Source: Escherichia coli
GTDB lineage: Bacteria > Pseudomonadota > Gammaproteobacteria > Enterobacterales > Enterobacteriaceae
Direction: 5' to 3' (one strand)
NCBI GenBank assembly: GCA_002099625.1
Contig: GCA_002099625.1_4857.1
DNA: 64,000 bases
Shown here piece after piece: positions 14,772 to 63,649 of the stretch. The notes under the pieces were generated by a model, which saw nothing but the letters and a program-made list of their open reading frames with translations, did not search any database and had not been told where the DNA came from. Position numbers and translations under genes: made by a program. Within the stretch, counting starts at the first letter, position 1; every line of letters begins with the position of its first letter.

Positions 14772-14786
14772 AGATAATATCTATCT
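14772..14786 (-). promoter_or_regulatory. conserved 15-mer AGATAATATCTATCT (copy 1 of 5), putative phage promoter
   Basis: Exact 15-mer shared with four other sites; 39 nt upstream of the ATG of 13728..14732 on the minus strand. Confidence 0.55.
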
Positions 14787-14837: not shown

Positions 14838-15536
14838 TTAGGGTATTAGGCGTTGGGCTATTTCGCGGAGTTGGTCGCGGGTTAAATCAGCCAACTTCTG
14901 GTCGCCGAAGCCCAACTTCAGACCCAGCTCGTATCCAGCTTGCGGATACGTGTTCGTGTTTGCTACTGAGAGGAGTGCATCGGCTATCTTTACCATCGTT
15001 AACTCGAGAGACGCATACGGGGCGGGGATCGGCTGATTCACGATTTGGTAATTATAACGCACTGCGGCGTTATCGTAGTCAAACTCCATCCTTCTGCCGA
15101 GAACGTTAAACGACTCCGCAGAATAACTACCAAATGGGTGATTGGCTTTTTCCCACAAATCTTTCCGTTCAGTAAACCCAGTCGCGAAGTTCTGACGTAT
15201 GGTGTCGAATATTTGCGTTGCCTGGCTAGGGTGTATATTTTTCAGCTCATTGTAGTCGTAGTCGGCGATGGAATATAGAGTGAACACAACACCGTTTATA
15301 TTTAACTGCGGATAATCCATCCGCAGACTATCATCACCTTGTAAATGAAGTTCCCACATCCTCACCCACTGCAATATCGCACTTACCGCATCGTGACTGA
15401 GATAAAAATTAGTAGGTTCTTCAGAATTTTCACGGAAGGGAACAGAGCATTCCGATGCAAAAAAGCCGGCTGCCATAAATCCTCTGCCGTCGAACATAGG
15501 CGCAACTAATCTTGATTTTTCTAAATTGATTACCAT
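14838..15536 (-). CDS. hypothetical protein
   Basis: 232-aa ORF, ATG with AAGGAGA RBS; promoter motif 40 nt upstream, terminator further upstream. Confidence 0.55.
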   Translation of the reverse strand: MVINLEKSRLVAPMFDGRGFMAAGFFASECSVPFRENSEEPTNFYLSHDAVSAILQWVRMWELHLQGDDSLRMDYPQLNINGVVFTLYSIADYDYNELKNIHPSQATQIFDTIRQNFATGFTERKDLWEKANHPFGSYSAESFNVLGRRMEFDYDNAAVRYNYQIVNQPIPAPYASLELTMVKIADALLSVANTNTYPQAGYELGLKLGFGDQKLADLTRDQLREIAQRLIP

Positions 15537-15576: not shown

Positions 15577-15591
15577 AGATAATATCTATCT
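15577..15591 (-). promoter_or_regulatory. conserved 15-mer AGATAATATCTATCT (copy 2 of 5), putative phage promoter
   Basis: Exact 15-mer; sits between the capsid-candidate terminator (15602-15640) and the start of 14838..15536, 40 nt from the ATG. Confidence 0.55.
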
Positions 15592-17981: not shown

Positions 17982-18506
17982 TTATTTAGATAAATGACAT
18001 GCGTACAACTGCGTCAGCACTTCGTGCGCAGCAAACTGCGTCGACGTACTGAACGTATCATCCACGACACGAGTCTTGGGACGCATATATTTAAAAAGTT
18101 CTGCGCAGAACATCTTTTTCGCAGCGTGGTCTTCACTTAAAGAAAAACCCGGTCCGGATTTAGCTTCTGCAAAAGACGCCACAACAACATCGCCACGTTG
18201 TGAGAACACCCAACGTAAACGACCGTCGAATGATTCCCCATATAAATCAGCAAGGGTTTCATTCGTACCTTTCTCAACCAGGTTTAAGACCTGGTCATAA
18301 TAAAGAGTCGGAAGTGCAGGTGGTGCCATAATCGATTTATAAATCGAAATAGGGTCACTCACTGGCAGTATGATGGAACTAAAGCCCGACGAGCAGTCAT
18401 ATAACCAGTTAAAGAAGCTTGCTTGGAGTTCCTCCAACTTTTTAACGCCAGCCCCTTTATCTATGTTAGATTGAACTTCCCACGGTGGACTAAAACGAAT
18501 TTGCAT
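17982..18506 (-). CDS. hypothetical protein
   Basis: Track ORF extends to 18560 and overlaps the divergent plus gene; the ATG at 18506 (MQIRFSPPWEV...) with GGAG about 10 nt upstream is the likelier start. Confidence 0.45.
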   Translation of the reverse strand: MQIRFSPPWEVQSNIDKGAGVKKLEELQASFFNWLYDCSSGFSSIILPVSDPISIYKSIMAPPALPTLYYDQVLNLVEKGTNETLADLYGESFDGRLRWVFSQRGDVVVASFAEAKSGPGFSLSEDHAAKKMFCAELFKYMRPKTRVVDDTFSTSTQFAAHEVLTQLYACHLSK

Positions 18507-18520
18507 TTTAAGGATGCTCC

Positions 18521-20083
18521 ATGAATAGTAAAATGATGTTGATAACCGCCTTAGCCGCACTGTATACAGAATCTATGCTGACGGACCCTAGCAAGGATCA
18601 TGATGTCATAAGAAAAGTTCTGATGCAGATCAAGCTTCCGGAATATGCGGAAGATGGCGAAGAGCGCTTTGCACTCATCGAGATCAAGGACATTATCACA
18701 TCTATCATAGACGGCGGCATGGAATACGACCACGCGAGCGTTATGAAGCGCTTGAAGCTGGCCACCACTCAAGTACGTCCTCTATACGATACGATTACCA
18801 AATTCCTCGAAGACGATTTGCCCGAGGAAGAAGACAAACGTACCGAGCATCTTAATCGACAACTGTCTCAATATTATTTCCAATTACGTCAATGTTTACA
18901 GAGCGTCGAACTCAAAACAAAAATGGGTCGCGCGTTCGGAGCATTGAATGGAACTGAGACACGTGTTGATCTGAACACCGCAGTGCTCGAACTCAAAGAG
19001 GCGCTATCTACGTTCGGTGAACGCTCTCATAATAAGATTCCATCACTGGTTGGTGAGCTGGTTACGGATAATCGTGCTCCGTTTGTTAAAGTGTTCGACT
19101 CGATTAACAAGAAAGCAGCAGGTAATGGTTTGCAGACGGGCTGGAAAGCCATTAACCAAATGCTCGGTTGTAACAAAGGGATTACCGAAGAACTGTGGCT
19201 AATGCCGGCGTTACCTTTTAACTGTAAGTCTTTGTTCAGTCTCTTACTGAGCTTGTCGATTCCTATCTTCAACACGCCTGAGAAAGTAATGGCGGATGTG
19301 AAGGGCACACTGCAACCAATTATTCTTGACTTGAGTTTAGAAAACGAACTCGACGTTAACTTAGCTTACGGCTATCAAGCACTGTACGGTCATTTTGAAG
19401 GACAAGTTCCACAGATGACCATTGCCCAAGATGCGACCGCTGAAGAGAAGTTAGCACACACAACAGCAATGTCTGATTACCTCTGTGGTAAGATTCGCGC
19501 AAACGGTTGGGACTACGTTTTCCAAAAGCACACCAACTCCGATTTTAAAGTGCACTACATCAACGACCTTATTCTCGACTTACGTCGTCGCGGTTATCAT
19601 GTTGTTGGCATTCGCGCAGACTACTTAGGCACAATCAGCAAAGCAGGACACGGCAACGGTATTGCCGGGAGTGATATCAAAGAAATTTATCGTATTGCTC
19701 GTAACATCCAAGTGGTACGCAACCGTGGGTTCTTAATTGCCCCACACCAGATTTCCCCAGAAGGTAAGCGCTTAAAAGCGTTAGACCCGGTAGGTTTCTG
19801 TAAGAACTTACCTGGTCGTGGTCTTTACGATAGTTGTTCGAGCCTTGATAACGAGGCCGATGGTGAAATGTATTTTAACAAGCGTGTGGTCAACGGCCAT
19901 AGCTTCTTAGAAGTTCAACGCGGTAAGCACCGCACCATTATCGATACTAAAGAATCTTATCACTACACAGTGATACCTTTCCAGGATGTTGGCATCCTGC
20001 CTTGGGATTGTGATAAAGAAGAAACCGTAACAGCGTCGTCTATCAACTTCTTCACCGGTGGAATGGGTGATGATTTGTTCTAA
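18521..20083 (+). CDS. hypothetical protein (520 aa)
   Basis: ATG with AAGGA 6 nt upstream; lone plus-strand gene in a minus-strand block; followed by GC-rich hairpins. Confidence 0.55.
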   Translation: MNSKMMLITALAALYTESMLTDPSKDHDVIRKVLMQIKLPEYAEDGEERFALIEIKDIITSIIDGGMEYDHASVMKRLKLATTQVRPLYDTITKFLEDDLPEEEDKRTEHLNRQLSQYYFQLRQCLQSVELKTKMGRAFGALNGTETRVDLNTAVLELKEALSTFGERSHNKIPSLVGELVTDNRAPFVKVFDSINKKAAGNGLQTGWKAINQMLGCNKGITEELWLMPALPFNCKSLFSLLLSLSIPIFNTPEKVMADVKGTLQPIILDLSLENELDVNLAYGYQALYGHFEGQVPQMTIAQDATAEEKLAHTTAMSDYLCGKIRANGWDYVFQKHTNSDFKVHYINDLILDLRRRGYHVVGIRADYLGTISKAGHGNGIAGSDIKEIYRIARNIQVVRNRGFLIAPHQISPEGKRLKALDPVGFCKNLPGRGLYDSCSSLDNEADGEMYFNKRVVNGHSFLEVQRGKHRTIIDTKESYHYTVIPFQDVGILPWDCDKEETVTASSINFFTGGMGDDLF

Positions 20084-20216
20084 CGAACACTGGGGAGCTT
20101 AGGCTCCCCTACGGGCAGTTTATGCGTCCTGCCAAGATCAAAAAAAAATACGACGAACTATTTATATGCATGGAATTACCCGAGTGTTCCAGCACTCGGG
20201 TAAGAGTTATTTCATG

Positions 20217-20363
20217 TTAACTTTTGTTTAGTAGTATTTCACCTCCTAAACCCTTGATACGACGAACAGTGTTCTGCTTGGGCGCAGTCAACTGTTGTAC
20301 ACGTTGGTTGAATTGGGTTTGCTTAACGTAATAGTTAAGTATTTGCGAACGTAGTTGTTCCAT
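20217..20363 (-). CDS. small Gln-rich protein (48 aa), paralogue 1 of a tandem pair
   Basis: ATG at 20363 with AAGGAGG RBS; MEQLRSQILNYYVKQTQFNQRVQQLTAPKQNTVRRIKGLGGEILLNKS; followed by hairpin CCCGAGTG-ttccag-CACTCGGG (20179-20200). Track ORF is a longer upstream extension. Confidence 0.4.
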   Translation of the reverse strand: MEQLRSQILNYYVKQTQFNQRVQQLTAPKQNTVRRIKGLGGEILLNKS

Positions 20364-20476
20364 GTAGTGCCTCCTTAGGCAGGTTGTTAATATATCGCTG
20401 CGCTGTGGTGGTACACAATGCACCGATATACTGTCACGGGAGTTAAAAGGGGTGCTCGAACACCCCTGGTTAGTGT

Positions 20477-20632
20477 TACTTCTTATTGAAGATGATGTCA
20501 CCTCCTAGTCCTTTAATGGTACGGGTGGAAGTCTGCGTTGGGCGGCTAACCTCTTGCAGACGTTGTTGAAAAGCGACTTGTTTCAGCTGTTGCTGACGCA
20601 GTTGTTGCATAAAGGTATTCATGTTAACCTCT
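20477..20632 (-). CDS. small Gln-rich protein (51 aa), paralogue 2 of a tandem pair
   Basis: ATG at 20632 with GAGG RBS; MNTFMQQLRQQQLKQVAFQQRLQEVSRPTQTSTRTIKGLGGDIIFNKK; shares the C-terminal motif R-x-IKGLGG(D/E)I with paralogue 1; followed by hairpin AGGGGTG-ctcgaa-CACCCCT (20448-20467). Confidence 0.4.
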
Positions 20633-20648
20633 AAGTGGATGTGAATAA

Positions 20649-20688
20649 GCTCTCTCCTTCGGGAGAGAGCGCCTTTTATTTTCTTTTC
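20649..20688 (+). terminator. plus-strand-oriented hairpin plus T-tract with no plus-strand gene upstream
   Basis: GCTCTCTCC-ttcg-GGAGAGAGC (20649-20670) followed by GCCTTTTATTTTCTTTTCGG on the plus strand; sits back-to-back with the minus terminator at 20691-20729. Confidence 0.4.
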
Positions 20689-20690
20689 GG

Positions 20691-20729
20691 AAAATAAATA
20701 TAAAACCCTCTTACCCGAAGGTAAGAGGG
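20691..20729 (-). terminator. intrinsic terminator downstream of 20736..21596
   Basis: Hairpin CCCTCTTAC-ccgaag-GTAAGAGGG (20706-20729) followed on the minus strand by TTTTATATTTATTTT. Confidence 0.6.
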
Positions 20730-20735
20730 GTACTA

Positions 20736-21596
20736 CTACGGTTTATAATCAACTTCGTTGATCTTGCCGCAAGCCGGACAAGCAATGTTCATTGTCTGCG
20801 AAGTATAGCGATGGGTTCTCGGTACTGTAGCGACATGGTTGCGGTTACAGCCGGAACACGTCCAGCCAACCACTGGTGCCTTCGATTGTTTCTGGGCAGG
20901 TGTGTCTTCTTTTAACAATGCGACTACCGCGTGAAATTTACGAAGCTCTGCGTTAACATGCGCTTCCCAGTCGGCGTCCAAACGCGCCGTGAACCAACGT
21001 TGAATCTTCTGGCCAAGTCCGTCTTGATTTTCTTCTTCATGGGACATCACAAACTTGAGATTTGCACGACCCCATTGCACGACGTTCTCTACTTTAATCC
21101 CGTCTACGGTGTCGCTGATTGGCGTATAGTTAAAAGTTGGATAGGTGAGATAACAAGCTTCAGCTGTTGCAAAGACAGTATTGCCTTCAAACAGTGCCAT
21201 GGCCTCATCGCCCTTAGCATCCTTCTGTGCGGCTTCCAATCGTGGGCAATGGAAACCTTCAAGTTGCTGGATTTTGGTCGTTAGCACATTGATACCCTGT
21301 AGCACGGCAATGCGCTTTTTGCTGTCTGTGATCGTCGCCATTACCTTGCACAACGCGCGCGAGATAGCGCTATACATTGACGTTTTGCGGTTTTCATCGA
21401 GGAAACGCTCTTGCTGCTCCAGGTCGTAAGAAGACAGGCCGTAGCTCTGCCCTTCGACCAACACGACATAAGTACGACGTTTGTCGCGGTCCAGCTGGAC
21501 AATGGCCGCATCGGTTAACGGATCGCTAGCCAATACTTCGTGGTTGGGAGGTAGGGGGAAATCCGAACTTTTGATAAAATCAGTAATGCTGTACAT
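20736..21596 (-). CDS. hypothetical protein with C-terminal zinc-ribbon (four Cys)
   Basis: 286-aa ORF; C-terminus CSGCNRNH...CPACGKINEV is a C-x2-C...C-x2-C pattern; AAGGA RBS. Confidence 0.55.
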   Translation of the reverse strand: MYSITDFIKSSDFPLPPNHEVLASDPLTDAAIVQLDRDKRRTYVVLVEGQSYGLSSYDLEQQERFLDENRKTSMYSAISRALCKVMATITDSKKRIAVLQGINVLTTKIQQLEGFHCPRLEAAQKDAKGDEAMALFEGNTVFATAEACYLTYPTFNYTPISDTVDGIKVENVVQWGRANLKFVMSHEEENQDGLGQKIQRWFTARLDADWEAHVNAELRKFHAVVALLKEDTPAQKQSKAPVVGWTCSGCNRNHVATVPRTHRYTSQTMNIACPACGKINEVDYKP

Positions 21597-22640: not shown

Positions 22641-22664
22641 CACCTAGGTAATATATATCTGAAA
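22641..22664 (-). promoter_or_regulatory. conserved element CACCTAGGTAATATATATCTGAAA (copy 1 of 2), putative phage promoter
   Basis: 24/24 identity with 31146-31169 and similar over ~40 bp; about 50 nt upstream of the ATG at 22588; minus-strand reading contains TATATATTAC. Confidence 0.5.
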
Positions 22665-22695: not shown

Positions 22696-22725
22696 GCTCT
22701 CAAACGCGTTTTGAGAGCTTTTATC
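22696..22725 (+). terminator. perfect 9-bp-stem hairpin with downstream TTTT on the plus strand, in an intergenic regulatory island
   Basis: GCTCTCAAA-cgcgt-TTTGAGAGC (22696-22718) followed by TTTTATCAC; no plus-strand gene upstream, so it may be an RNA structure or a binding-site palindrome rather than a terminator. Confidence 0.35.
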
Positions 22726-31145: not shown

Positions 31146-31169
31146 CACCTAGGTAATATATATCTGAAA
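31146..31169 (-). promoter_or_regulatory. conserved element CACCTAGGTAATATATATCTGAAA (copy 2 of 2), putative phage promoter
   Basis: 24/24 identity with 22641-22664; lies between the terminator 31187-31227 and the ATG at 31100, about 45 nt upstream. Confidence 0.5.
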
Positions 31170-58475: not shown

Positions 58476-58490
58476 AGATAATATCTATCT
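58476..58490 (-). promoter_or_regulatory. conserved 15-mer AGATAATATCTATCT (copy 3 of 5), in a 66-bp divergent intergenic region
   Basis: Exact 15-mer; 30 nt from the minus-strand ATG at 58445 and 21 nt from the plus-strand ATG at 58512, so it could serve either gene. Confidence 0.55.
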
Positions 58491-61965: not shown

Positions 61966-63600
61966 TTAAGAATTAAACCATTCAACTTCTTCTAACTTGC
62001 GACGTGCATTCAACACCATAAACTCCGCCAGGCTATTGTGCAGTGACAAGTGAGGTATATAGTTTGGCTGATCCGTCTCACACTTCAGCAGCGCAGCTGC
62101 TTCTGGTGTAGCCCTGAGATGGAACAGATACGGGTTGATGTGATCCTTGTGTAACAAGGTCAGTGATTCCCGTGGTGTAGATTGCGGTTCGAGATTACGC
62201 GGGTTGCGATACTCCTGAAGATAATATCTATCTAAATCTGCTTTGAGTTCAGATCGAATTGGGTCGGCTGCATAACCGGCAGACATCTCAGAACGCACCA
62301 TATTGCAACTTAACAGTTGCGCAACGTCATACATTCCATAATTGAGATAAGTTGCCTGTGCCAACGCCATACCGTAGCGAAACGCTTCTGGCCCACATTC
62401 AGTATACGTCTTATAATGCGCGCTACGATGGAGTGCTAATGCGACTAACCATTCGTGCAACGTATAGACAGGACCGTCATGTGTTGCCAGTTGCGAATCA
62501 ATCAATAACTTAACATCTGCTGGAGCGGCATTATCCAGACGCATTGTTTTCAAGAAAGAGCGGTATTCTTTAAATACGTACTCGGTACGGACGTATTCTT
62601 TCATCTGTGCAGGAGAACGTGCCTGCACCAAATCCATGGCGTTTATCTTACCCTTTTCGCCATTGAATACCACACTTTCCGGATGCGCTTTTAACAGCAC
62701 CGGCTGGTTAGAGATTTTGTTTGCAAAACCTGTTTCAATCTCTTGTTTAACCAGAAAATACATGCCGGTGACGATATTGTTGTTAACCATGATTTCAACC
62801 GGTAATTCACCACCGACTTCACGGACAGCCAACAATTTAATAATAGCATACGCCAGGATATAATCTTCCATCATATCCGTGCCATAGCCCCGCACCGTAG
62901 CCAGTACCGACAAACTGGTGCTGTTCGTACCTTTGTTTGCCAGTTCTTTTTCTACCTTTTCCATCACTGTCTGTAGGAACCCACGCAGTTTCGGAATAGC
63001 AGGTAAAGACATGACTTCCGTGTCTTGAAGCATCTCCAGACAGTATGTCAGATTGTACACCATTTTCCGGTGTGTTTCGATTGGCAAGTTCTTACCTATC
63101 GGGAACGTCCCCATGGTGAGGAACACCGGAATATACGGTTTAATCATCAGAACCAGTATCAACAACTCGTAATAGTCCGGACGAATGTACGTCATCGCTT
63201 CCGGATAATTACTGTTCATTTCATCGTGCGTATCTTCCATGTTCTGCGGAATCCACAGCTTATCGATGGGATACAGCTTACGATACACTTCGGCCTTGTG
63301 GAACTTCGCAATCGTCTGCACAATCTTCGGCATGTGCTTACGCTGCGTTTCCGTCGATTCGTTTGCCAGCTCGTCCAGCATCAGATACGCCATGAACAGT
63401 TCATCTTGTTCGTCTGGCGTTAAATAATCCCACACGCGTTGTAATTCCATGAAGAGAATGTTGTCGCGTGCAATCTGTTTACCTTTAACAGTGATGTAGT
63501 CGGGTGCGTTGTTATCCTTCCGATAACGTAAGCCAATAAATGTGACCTCTTGACCGTGATGCTCGATTGTCATCCGGTCTTTAATCTTCGTAATTTTCAT
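61966..63600 (-). CDS. hypothetical protein (544 aa)
   Basis: ATG with GGAG RBS; promoter 15-mer 34 nt upstream; one further 15-mer copy is embedded in its 3' coding region. Confidence 0.55.
   Translation of the reverse strand: MKITKIKDRMTIEHHGQEVTFIGLRYRKDNNAPDYITVKGKQIARDNILFMELQRVWDYLTPDEQDELFMAYLMLDELANESTETQRKHMPKIVQTIAKFHKAEVYRKLYPIDKLWIPQNMEDTHDEMNSNYPEAMTYIRPDYYELLILVLMIKPYIPVFLTMGTFPIGKNLPIETHRKMVYNLTYCLEMLQDTEVMSLPAIPKLRGFLQTVMEKVEKELANKGTNSTSLSVLATVRGYGTDMMEDYILAYAIIKLLAVREVGGELPVEIMVNNNIVTGMYFLVKQEIETGFANKISNQPVLLKAHPESVVFNGEKGKINAMDLVQARSPAQMKEYVRTEYVFKEYRSFLKTMRLDNAAPADVKLLIDSQLATHDGPVYTLHEWLVALALHRSAHYKTYTECGPEAFRYGMALAQATYLNYGMYDVAQLLSCNMVRSEMSAGYAADPIRSELKADLDRYYLQEYRNPRNLEPQSTPRESLTLLHKDHINPYLFHLRATPEAAALLKCETDQPNYIPHLSLHNSLAEFMVLNARRKLEEVEWFNS
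62219..62233 (-). promoter_or_regulatory. conserved 15-mer AGATAATATCTATCT (copy 4 of 5), embedded in coding sequence
   Basis: Exact 15-mer inside 61966..63600 (encoding DRYYLQ), about 265 nt upstream of the start of 60253..61953; candidate internal promoter. Confidence 0.4.
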
Positions 63601-63634: not shown

Positions 63635-63649
63635 AGATAATATCTATCT
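63635..63649 (-). promoter_or_regulatory. conserved 15-mer AGATAATATCTATCT (copy 5 of 5), putative phage promoter
   Basis: Exact 15-mer 34 nt upstream of the ATG at 63600. Confidence 0.55.

Follow-up and report, generated by a model that had tools for sequence, protein, structure and literature searches.

Two small basic paralogues in a hairpin-bracketed cassette beside the helicase gene of an SPN3US-like jumbo phage

The locus and its two mini-genes

The window, by which we mean the whole stretch of 64,000 nucleotides analysed, shares 98.6% DNA identity with the Salmonella jumbo phage SPN3US. The 652-nt island considered here is a convergent junction, at which a minus-strand operon ending in gp70 meets a lone plus-strand gene, gp73 (18521..20083), encoding a DnaB-like helicase. 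Between these two neighbours lie two mini-genes, A and B, which are SPN3US gp71 and gp72 (SPN3US_0071/0072; YP_009153365/6; UniProt G5DEG5). Both are already known: they are annotated as hypothetical proteins in SPN3US and grouped in PHROG 18219, and the database entries for gp71/gp72 and phrog_18219 give no function. The phage is a lytic jumbo phage. The coding features are as follows.

20628..20631, minus strand: Shine-Dalgarno sequence of A, GAGG, 5 nt 5' of the ATG
20476..20622, minus strand: mini-gene A, 48 aa, orthologue of SPN3US gp71 (SPN3US_0071): MNTFMQQLRQQQLKQVAFQQRLQEVSRPTQTSTRTIKGLGGDIIFNKK
20370..20376, minus strand: Shine-Dalgarno sequence of B, AAGGAGG, partly inside a 5-bp hairpin (20368-20381)
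20217..20363, minus strand: mini-gene B, 48 aa, 100% identical to SPN3US gp72 (AEP83905.1): MEQLRSQILNYYVKQTQFNQRVQQLTAPKQNTVRRIKGLGGEILLNKS

A first, sequence-only reading of this DNA had described two tandem, Gln-rich paralogues of ~48 aa, each with its own Shine-Dalgarno sequence. The ribosome-binding sites are indeed present (GAGG for A, AAGGAGG for B), and the paralogy holds, the two proteins being 51% identical across 47 residues (E = 3e-14) with R-x-IKGLGG(D/E)I common to both. The richness in Gln, however, belongs to the A lineage only (12 residues in A vs about 5 in Erwinia-phage homologues). Both proteins cover positions 1-48 of the 48-position PHROG 18219 profile, with E = 1.4e-25 for A and 6.8e-27 for B. 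The exact A sequence is present in NCBI (WP_176215074.1); relative to SPN3US gp71, the gene carries a compensated +1/-1 indel in the linker, giving SRPTQ for TRQPQ. The ORF track was said to report only one mini-gene, as a spurious 94-aa extension. The 94-aa ORF (20217-20501) does extend B from a GTG start, as claimed, but A is separately listed too. Diagnostic tryptic peptides are expected from gp71 (GLGGDIIFNK, QVAFQQR, LQEVTRQPQTSTR) and from gp72 (SQILNYYVK, QTQFNQR, VQQLTAPK, GLGGEILLNK), and the expected set also includes LQEVSRPTQTSTR.

Coding evidence, copy number, and protein family

Comparative sequence analysis identifies A and B as genuine paralogous protein-coding genes under purifying selection. 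The sense frame alone is open in 20 of the 20 loci compared, the third codon position varies most (column entropies of 0.85, 0.61, and 1.30 for positions 1, 2, and 3), and the dN/dS of the mini-genes lies between 0.06 and 0.42, with dS saturated between genera. In the related loci shown, a GGAG/GAGG-like element is found 5' of the ATG. That the ORFs might be lacking in related genomes had been named beforehand as what would speak against them; they are present, and syntenic, in 36 phage records.

In Seoulvirus, Machinavirus, and Wellingtonvirus, one syntenic copy adjoins the DnaB-like helicase gene at its 3' end, and this position is kept in the three genera even with a different upstream neighbour. 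The orthologous position between a gp70-type operon and the helicase 3' end is confirmed in Seoulvirus and related genera. This synteny may reflect mere overall genome collinearity. By tblastn, two copies are found in 7 of 36 phage records, and the inter-copy spacer is confined to the two-copy phages, also matching an eighth, fragmented record (SPFM1). Phage 1252 carries a chimera of an A head and an SPN3US-type B tail, and SEGD1 and EC001 carry chimeras of an A head and an SPLA5c-type B tail; these A/B chimeras preserve the frame and the 48-aa length. Judging from the genomes compared, the single copy is the ancestral and sufficient state, and the second is dispensable, since most relatives are single-copy, several of them as A-head/B-tail chimeras. 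The same comparison indicates that the second copy has been lost repeatedly, via recombination within the KGLGG-coding core.

The family has a fixed length of 47-49 aa and is polar, without a transmembrane segment. Its strongly basic net charge, +5 to +7, is kept across very divergent members. In an 18-sequence alignment, M1, Q20, R21, K37-G41, I43, and K47 are invariant; at one further locus, outside this alignment, N replaces K37. The C-terminal tip is almost invariant and reads (I/V/L)-K-G-L-G-G-(D/E)-I-(I/L/V)-(F/L)-x-K. An amphipathic helix of 25 residues is predicted at the N-terminus, followed by a variable linker that contains Pro and by a turn at KGLGG(D/E)I that is only weakly predicted. 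In the AF2 model, which is of low confidence (pLDDT 67, pTM 0.31), these correspond to a helix at residues 2-25, disorder at 26-35, and a weak beta-turn at 36-43. The hydrophobic stripe of the helix is heptad-like in the alignment, with an a/d pattern.

Hairpins and other non-coding elements

The non-coding features are listed below from high to low coordinate, with a strand where one is assigned.

20706..20729, minus strand: T1, 10-bp stem with a UUCG loop and a U-rich tail at about 20690-20705; terminator of the upstream operon ending in gp70
20675..20698: AT-rich palindrome TTTATTTTC/GAAAATAAA between T1 and H2, nearly invariant across genera
20649..20670: H2, GC-rich hairpin of 9 bp, followed by a T-run on the plus strand, where it is a canonical terminator
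20448..20467, minus strand: HA, 8 nt past the A stop codon, with a GUG-N6-CAC apex, then UUUUAA; terminator-like for A
20391..20430, minus strand: I2, 5' stem-loop of the B unit, formed by an imperfect inverted repeat whose arms measure 17 nt
20176..20203: HB (H3 class), 11-bp hairpin 13 nt past the B stop codon, with an invariant GTG-N6-CAC apex
20165..20168, plus strand: TATG, or CATA on the other strand; in 19 loci it keeps a distance of 7-9 nt from the hairpin
20140..20148: A9 on the plus strand, T9 on the minus; the tract counts 8-11 nt in every lineage and lies 10-18 nt from CATA
20114..20133: GGCAG-N10-CTGCC hairpin, conserved in sequence and loop between Seoulvirus and Machinavirus, with a single occurrence in the window
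20092..20109: 7-bp GC hairpin, 8 nt past the helicase stop codon

Perfect hairpins of at least 7 bp are concentrated here, with 5 of the window's 40 falling inside the island, which makes up 1% of the window; their density is ~14x that of the rest. Terminator-like sites number 8 in 19500-21500 vs 1.7 ± 1.3 in shuffles, and the folding z-scores of the island range from -3.4 to -5.0.

Several of these stems are conserved by pairing rather than by sequence. Across genera, T1 shows compensatory changes in 8 of its 10 pairs, with 97.8% of cells paired, and the HB/H3 hairpin in 8 of 11, with 91.6% of cells paired vs at most 44% in slid controls. The arms of H2 are unrelated in sequence among Seoulvirus, Machinavirus, and Wellingtonvirus, and the pairing is preserved; on the minus strand, H2 forms a 5' stem-loop whose end lies 21-28 nt from the start codon in all lineages. 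I2 is confined to two-copy phages, and 27 nt separate its end from the B start codon. Compensatory changes are also found in the 20092-20109 hairpin of Erwinia phages (GGGGAGC/GCTCCCC vs CTGGAGAC/GTCTCCAG). Such compensatory stem changes argue for RNA structure rather than for protein-recognised DNA iterons. The mini-genes had been taken for independent units, and this is borne out: each has its own Shine-Dalgarno sequence and its 5' and 3' stem-loops, and they behave as insulated units because the flanking stem-loops are conserved by covariation across three phage genera.

Judged by the U-tract expected of an intrinsic terminator, T1 (minus strand) and H2 (plus strand) qualify, and HA does so in part (UUUUAA); HB/H3 on the minus strand and both hairpins after the helicase gene do not. 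The tail of HB is devoid of a U-tract on the minus strand and T-rich but weak on the plus strand, and in most lineages the H3-class 3' hairpin falls short of a canonical terminator. The back-to-back, opposite-facing terminators of the sequence-only reading are found at 20706-20729 (minus) and 20649-20670 (plus), and its two further hairpins after the 18521..20083 gene at 20092-20109 and 20114-20133. Its GC-rich hairpin after each mini-gene is also present in both cases, but a short U-tract follows A only, HB being non-canonical on the minus strand. The AT-rich palindrome at 20675-20698 arises from the facing T-tails of T1 and H2, and is possibly the site of the mini-gene promoter. Wellingtonvirus-type loci display three hairpin-CATAG modules in a single orientation.

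Promoters and possible antisense transcription

In phiKZ-type phages, early promoters, which serve the virion RNA polymerase, are marked near -10 by a conserved AT-rich stretch of about 10 nt; late promoters serve the non-virion RNA polymerase. A phage early-type motif, AGATA[G/T]ATATTA[T/C]CT, is present seven times on the window's minus strand, the nearest occurrence being at 22646-22660. Directly upstream of A and B, no early-promoter-like motif was found; the best match in the island is 11/15, a quality reached 35 times in the window. A search for sigma70-type promoters upstream of the mini-genes found none. Early expression, envisaged at the outset, is not indicated by this distribution of motifs.

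On the opposite strand, the TATG at 20165-20168 resembles the phiKZ-type late promoter consensus T(-3)ATG(+1) (PMC7598289) and could, from its sequence, be a candidate start for an RNA antisense to the mini-genes. This antisense transcript is a conjecture, because the TATG comprises 4 nt only and its extended form, YTATGNRGG, is not found again 5' of the window's late genes. The mini-ORFs sit between the helicase stop codon and H2, the first canonical helicase-sense terminator. At the window's other convergent junction, a canonical hairpin with a T-run serves as terminator, and plus-strand transcripts are therefore expected to need one.

Homology searches and rejected identities

From database searches at the sequence level, the protein family is clade-restricted and confined to this phage group. 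A word-indexed search of 5.8 billion proteins, with a single sequence and then a profile, and an exhaustive HMM search of 1.84 billion representatives returned the same clade and three Q-rich low-complexity matches only. No family was matched in Pfam or NCBIfam, and none of 18 members matches the PADLOC models of defence and counter-defence. Rfam returned no family above threshold; its sub-threshold, miRNA-like matches are due to the facing hairpins. In the accessible SPN3US papers and supplements, gp71 and gp72 are unmentioned, including among virion proteins, and a literature search found no mention of the KGLGG motif or of gp71/gp72. For the small regulators or effectors suggested by the sequence-only reading, neither a homologue, a fold match, nor a published experiment was thus found.

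Structural comparisons were equally silent. A profile search of the PDB gave nothing significant, the top match being uL29 at E = 0.77, and Foldseek with the low-confidence AF2 model found no match in the PDB. Mimicry of uL29 (PF00831) was rejected because the pairwise BLASTP comparison with E. coli uL29, made with an approximate uL29 sequence, gave E = 52; Pfam is silent here as well. The I-K-G-L-G-G stretch presumably resembles the GhG/GXXG of HhH/KH domains. The KH/HhH reading was discarded too: no such model is matched at E <= 10 by the 18 members, and the AF2 model predicts one helix and a weak turn only, where KH would require a beta-alpha-alpha-beta topology and HhH a helix-hairpin-helix. 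As for a replication origin, the GC skew displays no inflection near 20 kb.

Possible functions

The reading that we tentatively favour, plausible if still short of probable, is that the mini-protein is a basic ligand of a nucleic acid or of a nucleic-acid machine that folds on binding, produced from an insulated cassette antisense to helicase-sense transcription. The protein would have no stable fold of its own and would act stoichiometrically; its helix could pair with itself or with a partner helix, while the GLGG turn and the hydrophobic tip would dock on the target. This target would most likely be a nucleic acid or the machinery handling it, be it RNA, the ribosome, or the replication machinery of the adjoining genes, because the high positive charge is conserved and the Gln-Arg and Lys residues are invariant. 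Charge and these few invariant residues are the sole basis for a nucleic-acid target, no KH, HhH, or other nucleic-acid-binding model being matched. The mini-genes probably lie antisense within the helicase-sense transcript, since H2 is a canonical terminator for the helicase-sense strand only, and the TATG and the A-tract agree with this placement. They could be switched off while that strand is transcribed, and their own promoter would not be of the early type.

A more specific version, which we consider quite unlikely, is a self-contained timing switch. In it, the basic protein would recognise the hairpin with the GUG...CAC apex that follows its own gene, or hairpins of this kind in RNA or DNA, and a TATG-started antisense RNA ending at H2 would silence it at the onset of helicase-sense transcription. 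If true, the expression of the mini-protein and that of the replicative helicase would be coupled in opposition, a kind of control undescribed in nucleus-forming jumbo phages.

Less probable than the favoured ligand, yet a serious contender, is an effector acting between proteins, by helix packing and beta-strand addition rather than via nucleic acid: a small inhibitor or adaptor of a host protein serving takeover or counter-defence, or a partner of the neighbouring divergent DnaB-like helicase, as its loader or an accessory subunit. The predicted helix and short C-terminal hydrophobic strand are typical of fold-on-binding peptide ligands, hydrophobic positions follow the a/d heptad pattern, and many phage host-takeover proteins are of similar size. 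The 3' end of the helicase gene is moreover the constant neighbour in three genera while the upstream neighbour changes. Against such a role, no match was found in PADLOC or any other family library, and the mini-genes run towards the helicase gene from the opposite strand instead of being transcribed together with it. Very divergent members moreover keep a net charge of +5 to +7, which suits a polyanionic target better.

It is unlikely that the main function resides in the RNA or DNA itself, as terminators, antisense or small RNAs, or a replication origin by the helicase gene, with the ORFs incidental or weakly relevant. The ~14-fold hairpin density is in keeping with this, as are the sequence-conserved non-coding elements (the AT palindrome, GGCAGGACGCATAAACTGCC, the CATA motif, and the T8-11 run) and the three hairpin-CATAG modules of Wellingtonvirus-type loci, which resemble iterons or tandem promoters. 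However, the ORFs have a clear coding signature and are under purifying selection, and are therefore not incidental; no Rfam family reaches threshold, and the stems evolve by compensatory change, as RNA structure and not as DNA iterons.

Very improbable is a precursor cleaved after the invariant Gly-Gly, releasing a 7-residue signal, (D/E)I(I/L)(F/L)xK(R/K), or leaving a GG-ended 41-mer tag, by analogy with double-glycine leaders, arbitrium AimP, or ubiquitin-like modifiers. GLGG and the following acidic residue form the most conserved element of the family, and G-G-E agrees with S/A/G-x-E, a loose pattern quoted for the prohead protease of phiKZ-type phages (PMC5694885). Yet most family members have Asp, not Glu, after GG, position -4 is Gly instead of the hydrophobic residue of double-glycine leaders, and the N-terminus is free of any signal peptide or hydrophobic segment. 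Furthermore, no receptor, peptidase, or transporter gene is found among the adjacent genes, the phage is lytic, and the accessible SPN3US papers, supplements included, do not name the proteins as part of the virion.

That the ORFs are spurious, A and B resembling each other as a duplicated non-coding segment, is scarcely credible: they are very short and their translation is predicted from sequence, but the frame, substitution, and chimera data given above, with Shine-Dalgarno sequences at the right distance in the window, refute it as far as comparative sequence analysis allows.

Significance and comparison with known systems

SPN3US, most of whose genes are without an assigned function, is the genetic model for the nucleus-forming (phiKZ-like) enterobacterial jumbo phages. 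In it, gp71/gp72 are now a defined target, namely a small protein that is under selection, specific to this clade, and marked by the invariant tip KGLGG(D/E)I, in a conserved hairpin cassette; the natural one-copy and chimeric variants serve as deletion experiments. Should the antisense arrangement prove true, it would illustrate in a simple and testable form how a phage can time gene expression with its own RNA polymerases.

Among known systems, SPN3US gp71/gp72 (PHROG 18219) are the same genes as A and B, with nothing different in kind. The leader and propeptide systems fit poorly. Double-glycine leaders, those of class II bacteriocins and PCAT substrates, are N-terminal segments, 15-30 aa long, in which positions -4, -7, and -12 before the GG are hydrophobic; a longer cargo follows, and a C39-peptidase ABC transporter is encoded in an adjacent gene. 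In the 48-residue mini-proteins, GG occupies residues 40-41, Gly and Arg stand at -4 and -7, only 7 aa would remain as cargo, and no transporter is found among the neighbours. AimP has an N-terminal secretion signal, a mature C-terminal hexapeptide, and an adjacent AimR receptor gene, in temperate phages; here, the N-terminal helix is polar and amphipathic, the neighbours are gp70 and the helicase gene, and the phage is lytic. With excludon-type or convergent units and type I toxin-antitoxin systems, the locus has in common small ORFs faced by a conserved TATG and A-tract on the antisense strand. A type I toxin-antitoxin identity was nevertheless rejected, the mini-protein being polar and basic (+5 to +7) without a transmembrane segment, unlike a hydrophobic membrane toxin, and the antisense promoter and RNA being conjectural and putative.

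Small phage-encoded binders of host or replication machinery form a further comparison. Staphylococcus phage 77 ORF104, of 52 aa, reportedly binds the helicase loader DnaI. With ORF104 and T7 Gp2, the mini-proteins are alike in their size class of ~50 aa, in being mostly helical with a functional C-terminal tail, and in having their gene beside replication genes. They differ in that there is no sequence or fold similarity, and in that the mini-genes converge on the helicase gene without a common operon.

Phage morons, the terminator-flanked single-gene cassettes, likewise consist of a short gene that carries its own ribosome-binding site and stands between hairpins or terminators, amid larger conserved genes, and the second mini-gene copy is sporadic among close relatives, as a moron would be. 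In contrast, the first copy is conserved and syntenic in three genera, the mini-genes are without an identifiable promoter, and their 3' hairpin is a non-canonical terminator in most lineages. In sum, gp71/gp72 are an ordinary small phage gene pair rather than a new kind of system, and the present account is a useful description of a known locus.

The island and its flanking genes

Over the 1.4 kb around the island, DNA identity to SPN3US is 98.6%. This Salmonella phage (Seoulvirus) is a phiKZ-like jumbo phage of 240 kb, and its close relatives have Salmonella, E. coli, Proteus, and Erwinia as hosts. The 652-nt island separates gp73, encoding a DnaB-like helicase (18521-20083, plus strand; Pfam divDNAB, E = 1e-124), from gp70 (20736-21596, minus strand), whose product is reported to be essential and non-virion (PMC5105663). 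Its elements are the following.

Elements of the island, in minus-strand order from the gp70 stop codon to the helicase stop codon
gp70 stop codon
20729-20706, minus: T1, canonical terminator with UUCG loop and U-rich tail
between T1 and H2: AT palindrome
20670-20649: hairpin H2
20476-20622, minus: mini-gene A, 48 codons, preceded by Shine-Dalgarno GAGG
20467-20448, minus: hairpin HA, then UUUUAA
20430-20391, minus: I2, imperfect hairpin with 17-nt arms
20217-20363, minus: mini-gene B, 48 codons, preceded by Shine-Dalgarno AAGGAGG (partly paired)
20203-20176: hairpin HB
7 nt past HB: CATA
20148-20140: T9
20133-20114: GGCAG...CTGCC hairpin
20109-20092: GGGGAGC hairpin
helicase stop codon

The gp70 C-terminus forms a CxxC...CxxC zinc-ribbon-like tail (residues about 246-278), and its PHROG matches are weak (translational regulator, E = 0.002; Lar-like protein, E = 0.17). 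Its N-terminal domain shares merely 23% identity with Machina gp81, which has no counterpart of this tail. The helicase gene stands as a lone plus-strand gene amid minus-strand genes. Its ATG (18521) and that of gp74 (18506, minus strand) are 14 nt apart and their Shine-Dalgarno sequences overlap (18504-18523), so the promoters of the helicase and of the gp74/major-capsid block must sit within coding DNA. Plus-strand TATGATGGAA (18369-18378) is similar to TATGCATGGAA (20165-20175).

Two conserved mini-genes

The sequence-only reading had described two Gln-rich paralogues of ~48 residues, each with its own Shine-Dalgarno sequence. Both genes stand, with 5-6 nt between Shine-Dalgarno and ATG; their products share 51% identity (E = 3e-14) and the motif R-x-IKGLGG(D/E)I, and the 94-aa ORF reported there is indeed a spurious, GTG-started extension of B. 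Gln-richness holds for the A lineage and not for the rest of the family. The SPN3US annotation contains exactly these two genes as SPN3US_0071 and SPN3US_0072, each labelled "hypothetical protein"; B has the same sequence as AEP83905.1, and A is found unchanged at NCBI as WP_176215074.1. Both match PHROG 18219 over its full length (48-position profile, function unassigned). A literature search for gp71 and gp72 found no published statement on either protein.

The ORFs are conserved in related genomes: the gene occurs in 36 phage-collection records, each from a jumbo phage in the range of about 200-250 kb. A word-indexed profile search of 5.8 billion proteins and an exhaustive one of 1.84 billion representatives both returned this clade only, and Pfam, NCBIfam, PADLOC, PDB (sequence and fold), and Rfam gave nothing meaningful. 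Coding status was assessed on 20 gene copies from 17 loci, sampling Seoulvirus, Machinavirus (Machina, Huxley, pEa_SNUABM_6/10/43, pSal-SNUABM-04), Wellingtonvirus (pEa_SNUABM_11), and two IMG/VR contigs. The sense frame is the sole one without stops in all 20 copies, column entropy is 0.85, 0.61, and 1.30 bits at codon positions 1, 2, and 3, dN/dS ranges from 0.06 to 0.42 (dS being saturated between genera), and length is constant at 47-49 residues. This signature marks A and B as real protein-coding genes under selection, and it counters the readings of a spurious ORF or of a purely non-coding function; together with a peptide processed at GG, for which the expected family features are missing, these are unlikely or refuted.

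In an 18-sequence alignment, M1, Q20, R21, K37-G38-L39-G40-G41, I43, and K47 are invariant; in one additional locus, pEa_SNUABM_10, K37 is replaced by N. AlphaFold2, run with the family alignment, predicts a helix (2-25), a disordered linker (26-35), and a weak beta-turn (36-43), with a pLDDT of 67. In the same alignment, positions 1, 4, 8, 18, 22, and 25 are hydrophobic and 11 and 15 polar, which we read as a heptad stripe at a/d positions whose middle is polar. By our count, net charge stays at +5 to +7 in every lineage despite strong helix divergence. Relative to SPN3US gp71, gene A of the window carries a compensated -1/+1 indel in the linker (20536-20550; CGCCCAACG vs CGCCAACCG, SRPTQ vs TRQPQ), a segment that therefore tolerates local changes of frame.

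Copy number

By tblastn, two copies are present in seven of the 36 records: SPN3US (two records), Proteus phage 7, SPLA1a, SPLA3, SPLA5c, and MET_P1_082_240. The inter-copy spacer with I2 is limited to these and to an eighth record, the fragmented SPFM1. In phage 1252, SEGD1, and EC001, the single copy is a chimera whose first 114 or so nucleotides are those of A; the final 30 nucleotides are exactly SPN3US-type B in phage 1252, and in SEGD1 and EC001 they agree with SPLA5c-type B in 29 of 30 positions. The junction falls within the shared TAGGAGGTGA, coding LGG(D/E), and therefore the two-copy state was reduced to a single copy, apparently twice, a full 48-codon gene always being kept. A single copy thus suffices, with at least one retained. 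With dS saturated, A and B have diverged too far for a recent duplication; the closest relative of B is the single copy of SPAsTU (77% amino-acid identity).

A hairpin-bounded cassette

The impression of a hairpin-rich island is borne out: terminator-like sites number 8 vs 1.7 +/- 1.3 in shuffles, of the 40 perfect hairpins of 7 bp or more in the window, 5 lie in this 1% of its length, and folding z-scores range from -3.4 to -5.0. The idea of independent, insulated units also gains support, since a one-gene version of the cassette plan is found in all three genera and its hairpins covary. In small, loop-anchored alignments that bias the counts towards structure, pairing is retained at 97.8% in T1, where 8 of 10 pairs show compensatory changes, and at 91.6% in the post-gene hairpin, where 8 of 11 do (slid controls, at most 44%). 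The apex GTG-N6-CAC of the latter is invariant. The arms of H2 are unrelated in sequence among the genera, and a strong stem always ends 21-28 nt 5' of the ATG.

Hexaloops of the post-gene hairpin (window 20176-20203 and 20448-20467, with homologues in loci L002-L020) are reverse-complemented between near-identical phages (CTGTAA/TTACAG, CTCGAA/TTCGAG). This pattern indicates repeated loop inversion within the palindrome, and such flips are typical of neutral hairpin loops. In Wellingtonvirus-type loci, the spacer from mini-gene to helicase gene measures about 260-400 nt (L017 2647-3055, L015 1263-1530) and contains three hairpin-CATAG modules in one orientation, with A- and T-runs; these may represent promoters in tandem, small RNAs, or repeats of an iteron-like kind.

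Transcription

A 15-nt AT-rich motif, AGATA[G/T]ATATTA[T/C]CT, occurs seven times in the window, each time on the minus strand, behind a terminator and ahead of a gene block (matches, 9 vs 1.3 expected):

14772-14786, minus: early motif
15577-15591, minus: early motif
22646-22660, minus: early motif
31151-31165, minus: early motif
58476-58490, minus: early motif
62219-62233, minus: early motif
63635-63649, minus: early motif

Each copy is followed by a small hairpin. The motif agrees with the jumbo-phage early promoter description (PMC7598289) and probably represents this phage's consensus for early promoters, those of the virion RNA polymerase. The intergenic segment 22590-22832 (243 nt) contains some four CTCTAAA(G/C)-like direct repeats together with a hairpin (22696-22718), immediately upstream of the copy at 22646-22660. 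A 232-aa ORF (MVINLEKSRLVAPMFDGRG...; 14838-15536, minus strand) follows the major capsid gene; the equivalent SPN3US spot (L016 16407-16738) retains no more than a 27-aa remnant (MEVNLERSRLVAPMFDGRGSMANGHHV), flanked by two early motifs, which marks this site as a variable spot among otherwise near-identical phages.

The copy nearest to the island, at 22646-22660, heads the block ending with gp70 and T1. Upstream of A or B the early motif is absent (best match 11/15, equalled by 35 other window sites), no sigma70-like site was found near the mini-genes, and there is no TATG between T1 and the ATG; because of this, their mRNA would need either an unrecognised promoter in the AT-rich spacer, with the H2 stem-loop at its start, or T1 read-through. 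H2 has a proper T-run on the plus strand only and is scored there as a terminator facing T1; the back-to-back terminators noticed earlier are present. The hairpins directly 3' of the helicase stop codon lack a T-run; the window's other plus-strand gene ends in a canonical hairpin and T-run. In the simplest reading, the helicase-sense transcript would run across the mini-genes in antisense and end at H2.

A plus-strand TATG lies 7-9 nt from the post-gene hairpin in 19/19 copies and is preceded, about 20-27 nt upstream, by an A8-11 run; both agree with published features of phiKZ, T-3ATG+1 for the late class and AT-rich at -24 for the middle class (PMC7598289). An antisense promoter at this TATG is kept as a hypothesis only, because the window's late genes are not preceded by the extended motif.

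Possible function

On comparative grounds, the mini-genes encode a selected, insulated, clade-specific small basic protein. With modest confidence, we propose that it acts stoichiometrically as a fold-on-binding ligand of a polyanionic target, either nucleic acid or a nucleic-acid machine, and that its expression is opposed to helicase-sense transcription. The helix would supply pairing, and docking would fall to the invariant GLGG turn and its hydrophobic tip. The main rival to this polyanion ligand is an effector that acts purely on protein targets, or an accessory of the helicase. As genes, A and B are already in the public record and of low novelty; what is new is descriptive, namely the conserved cassette, its covarying hairpins, the drop in copy number through recombination in the core, and a putative antisense arrangement.
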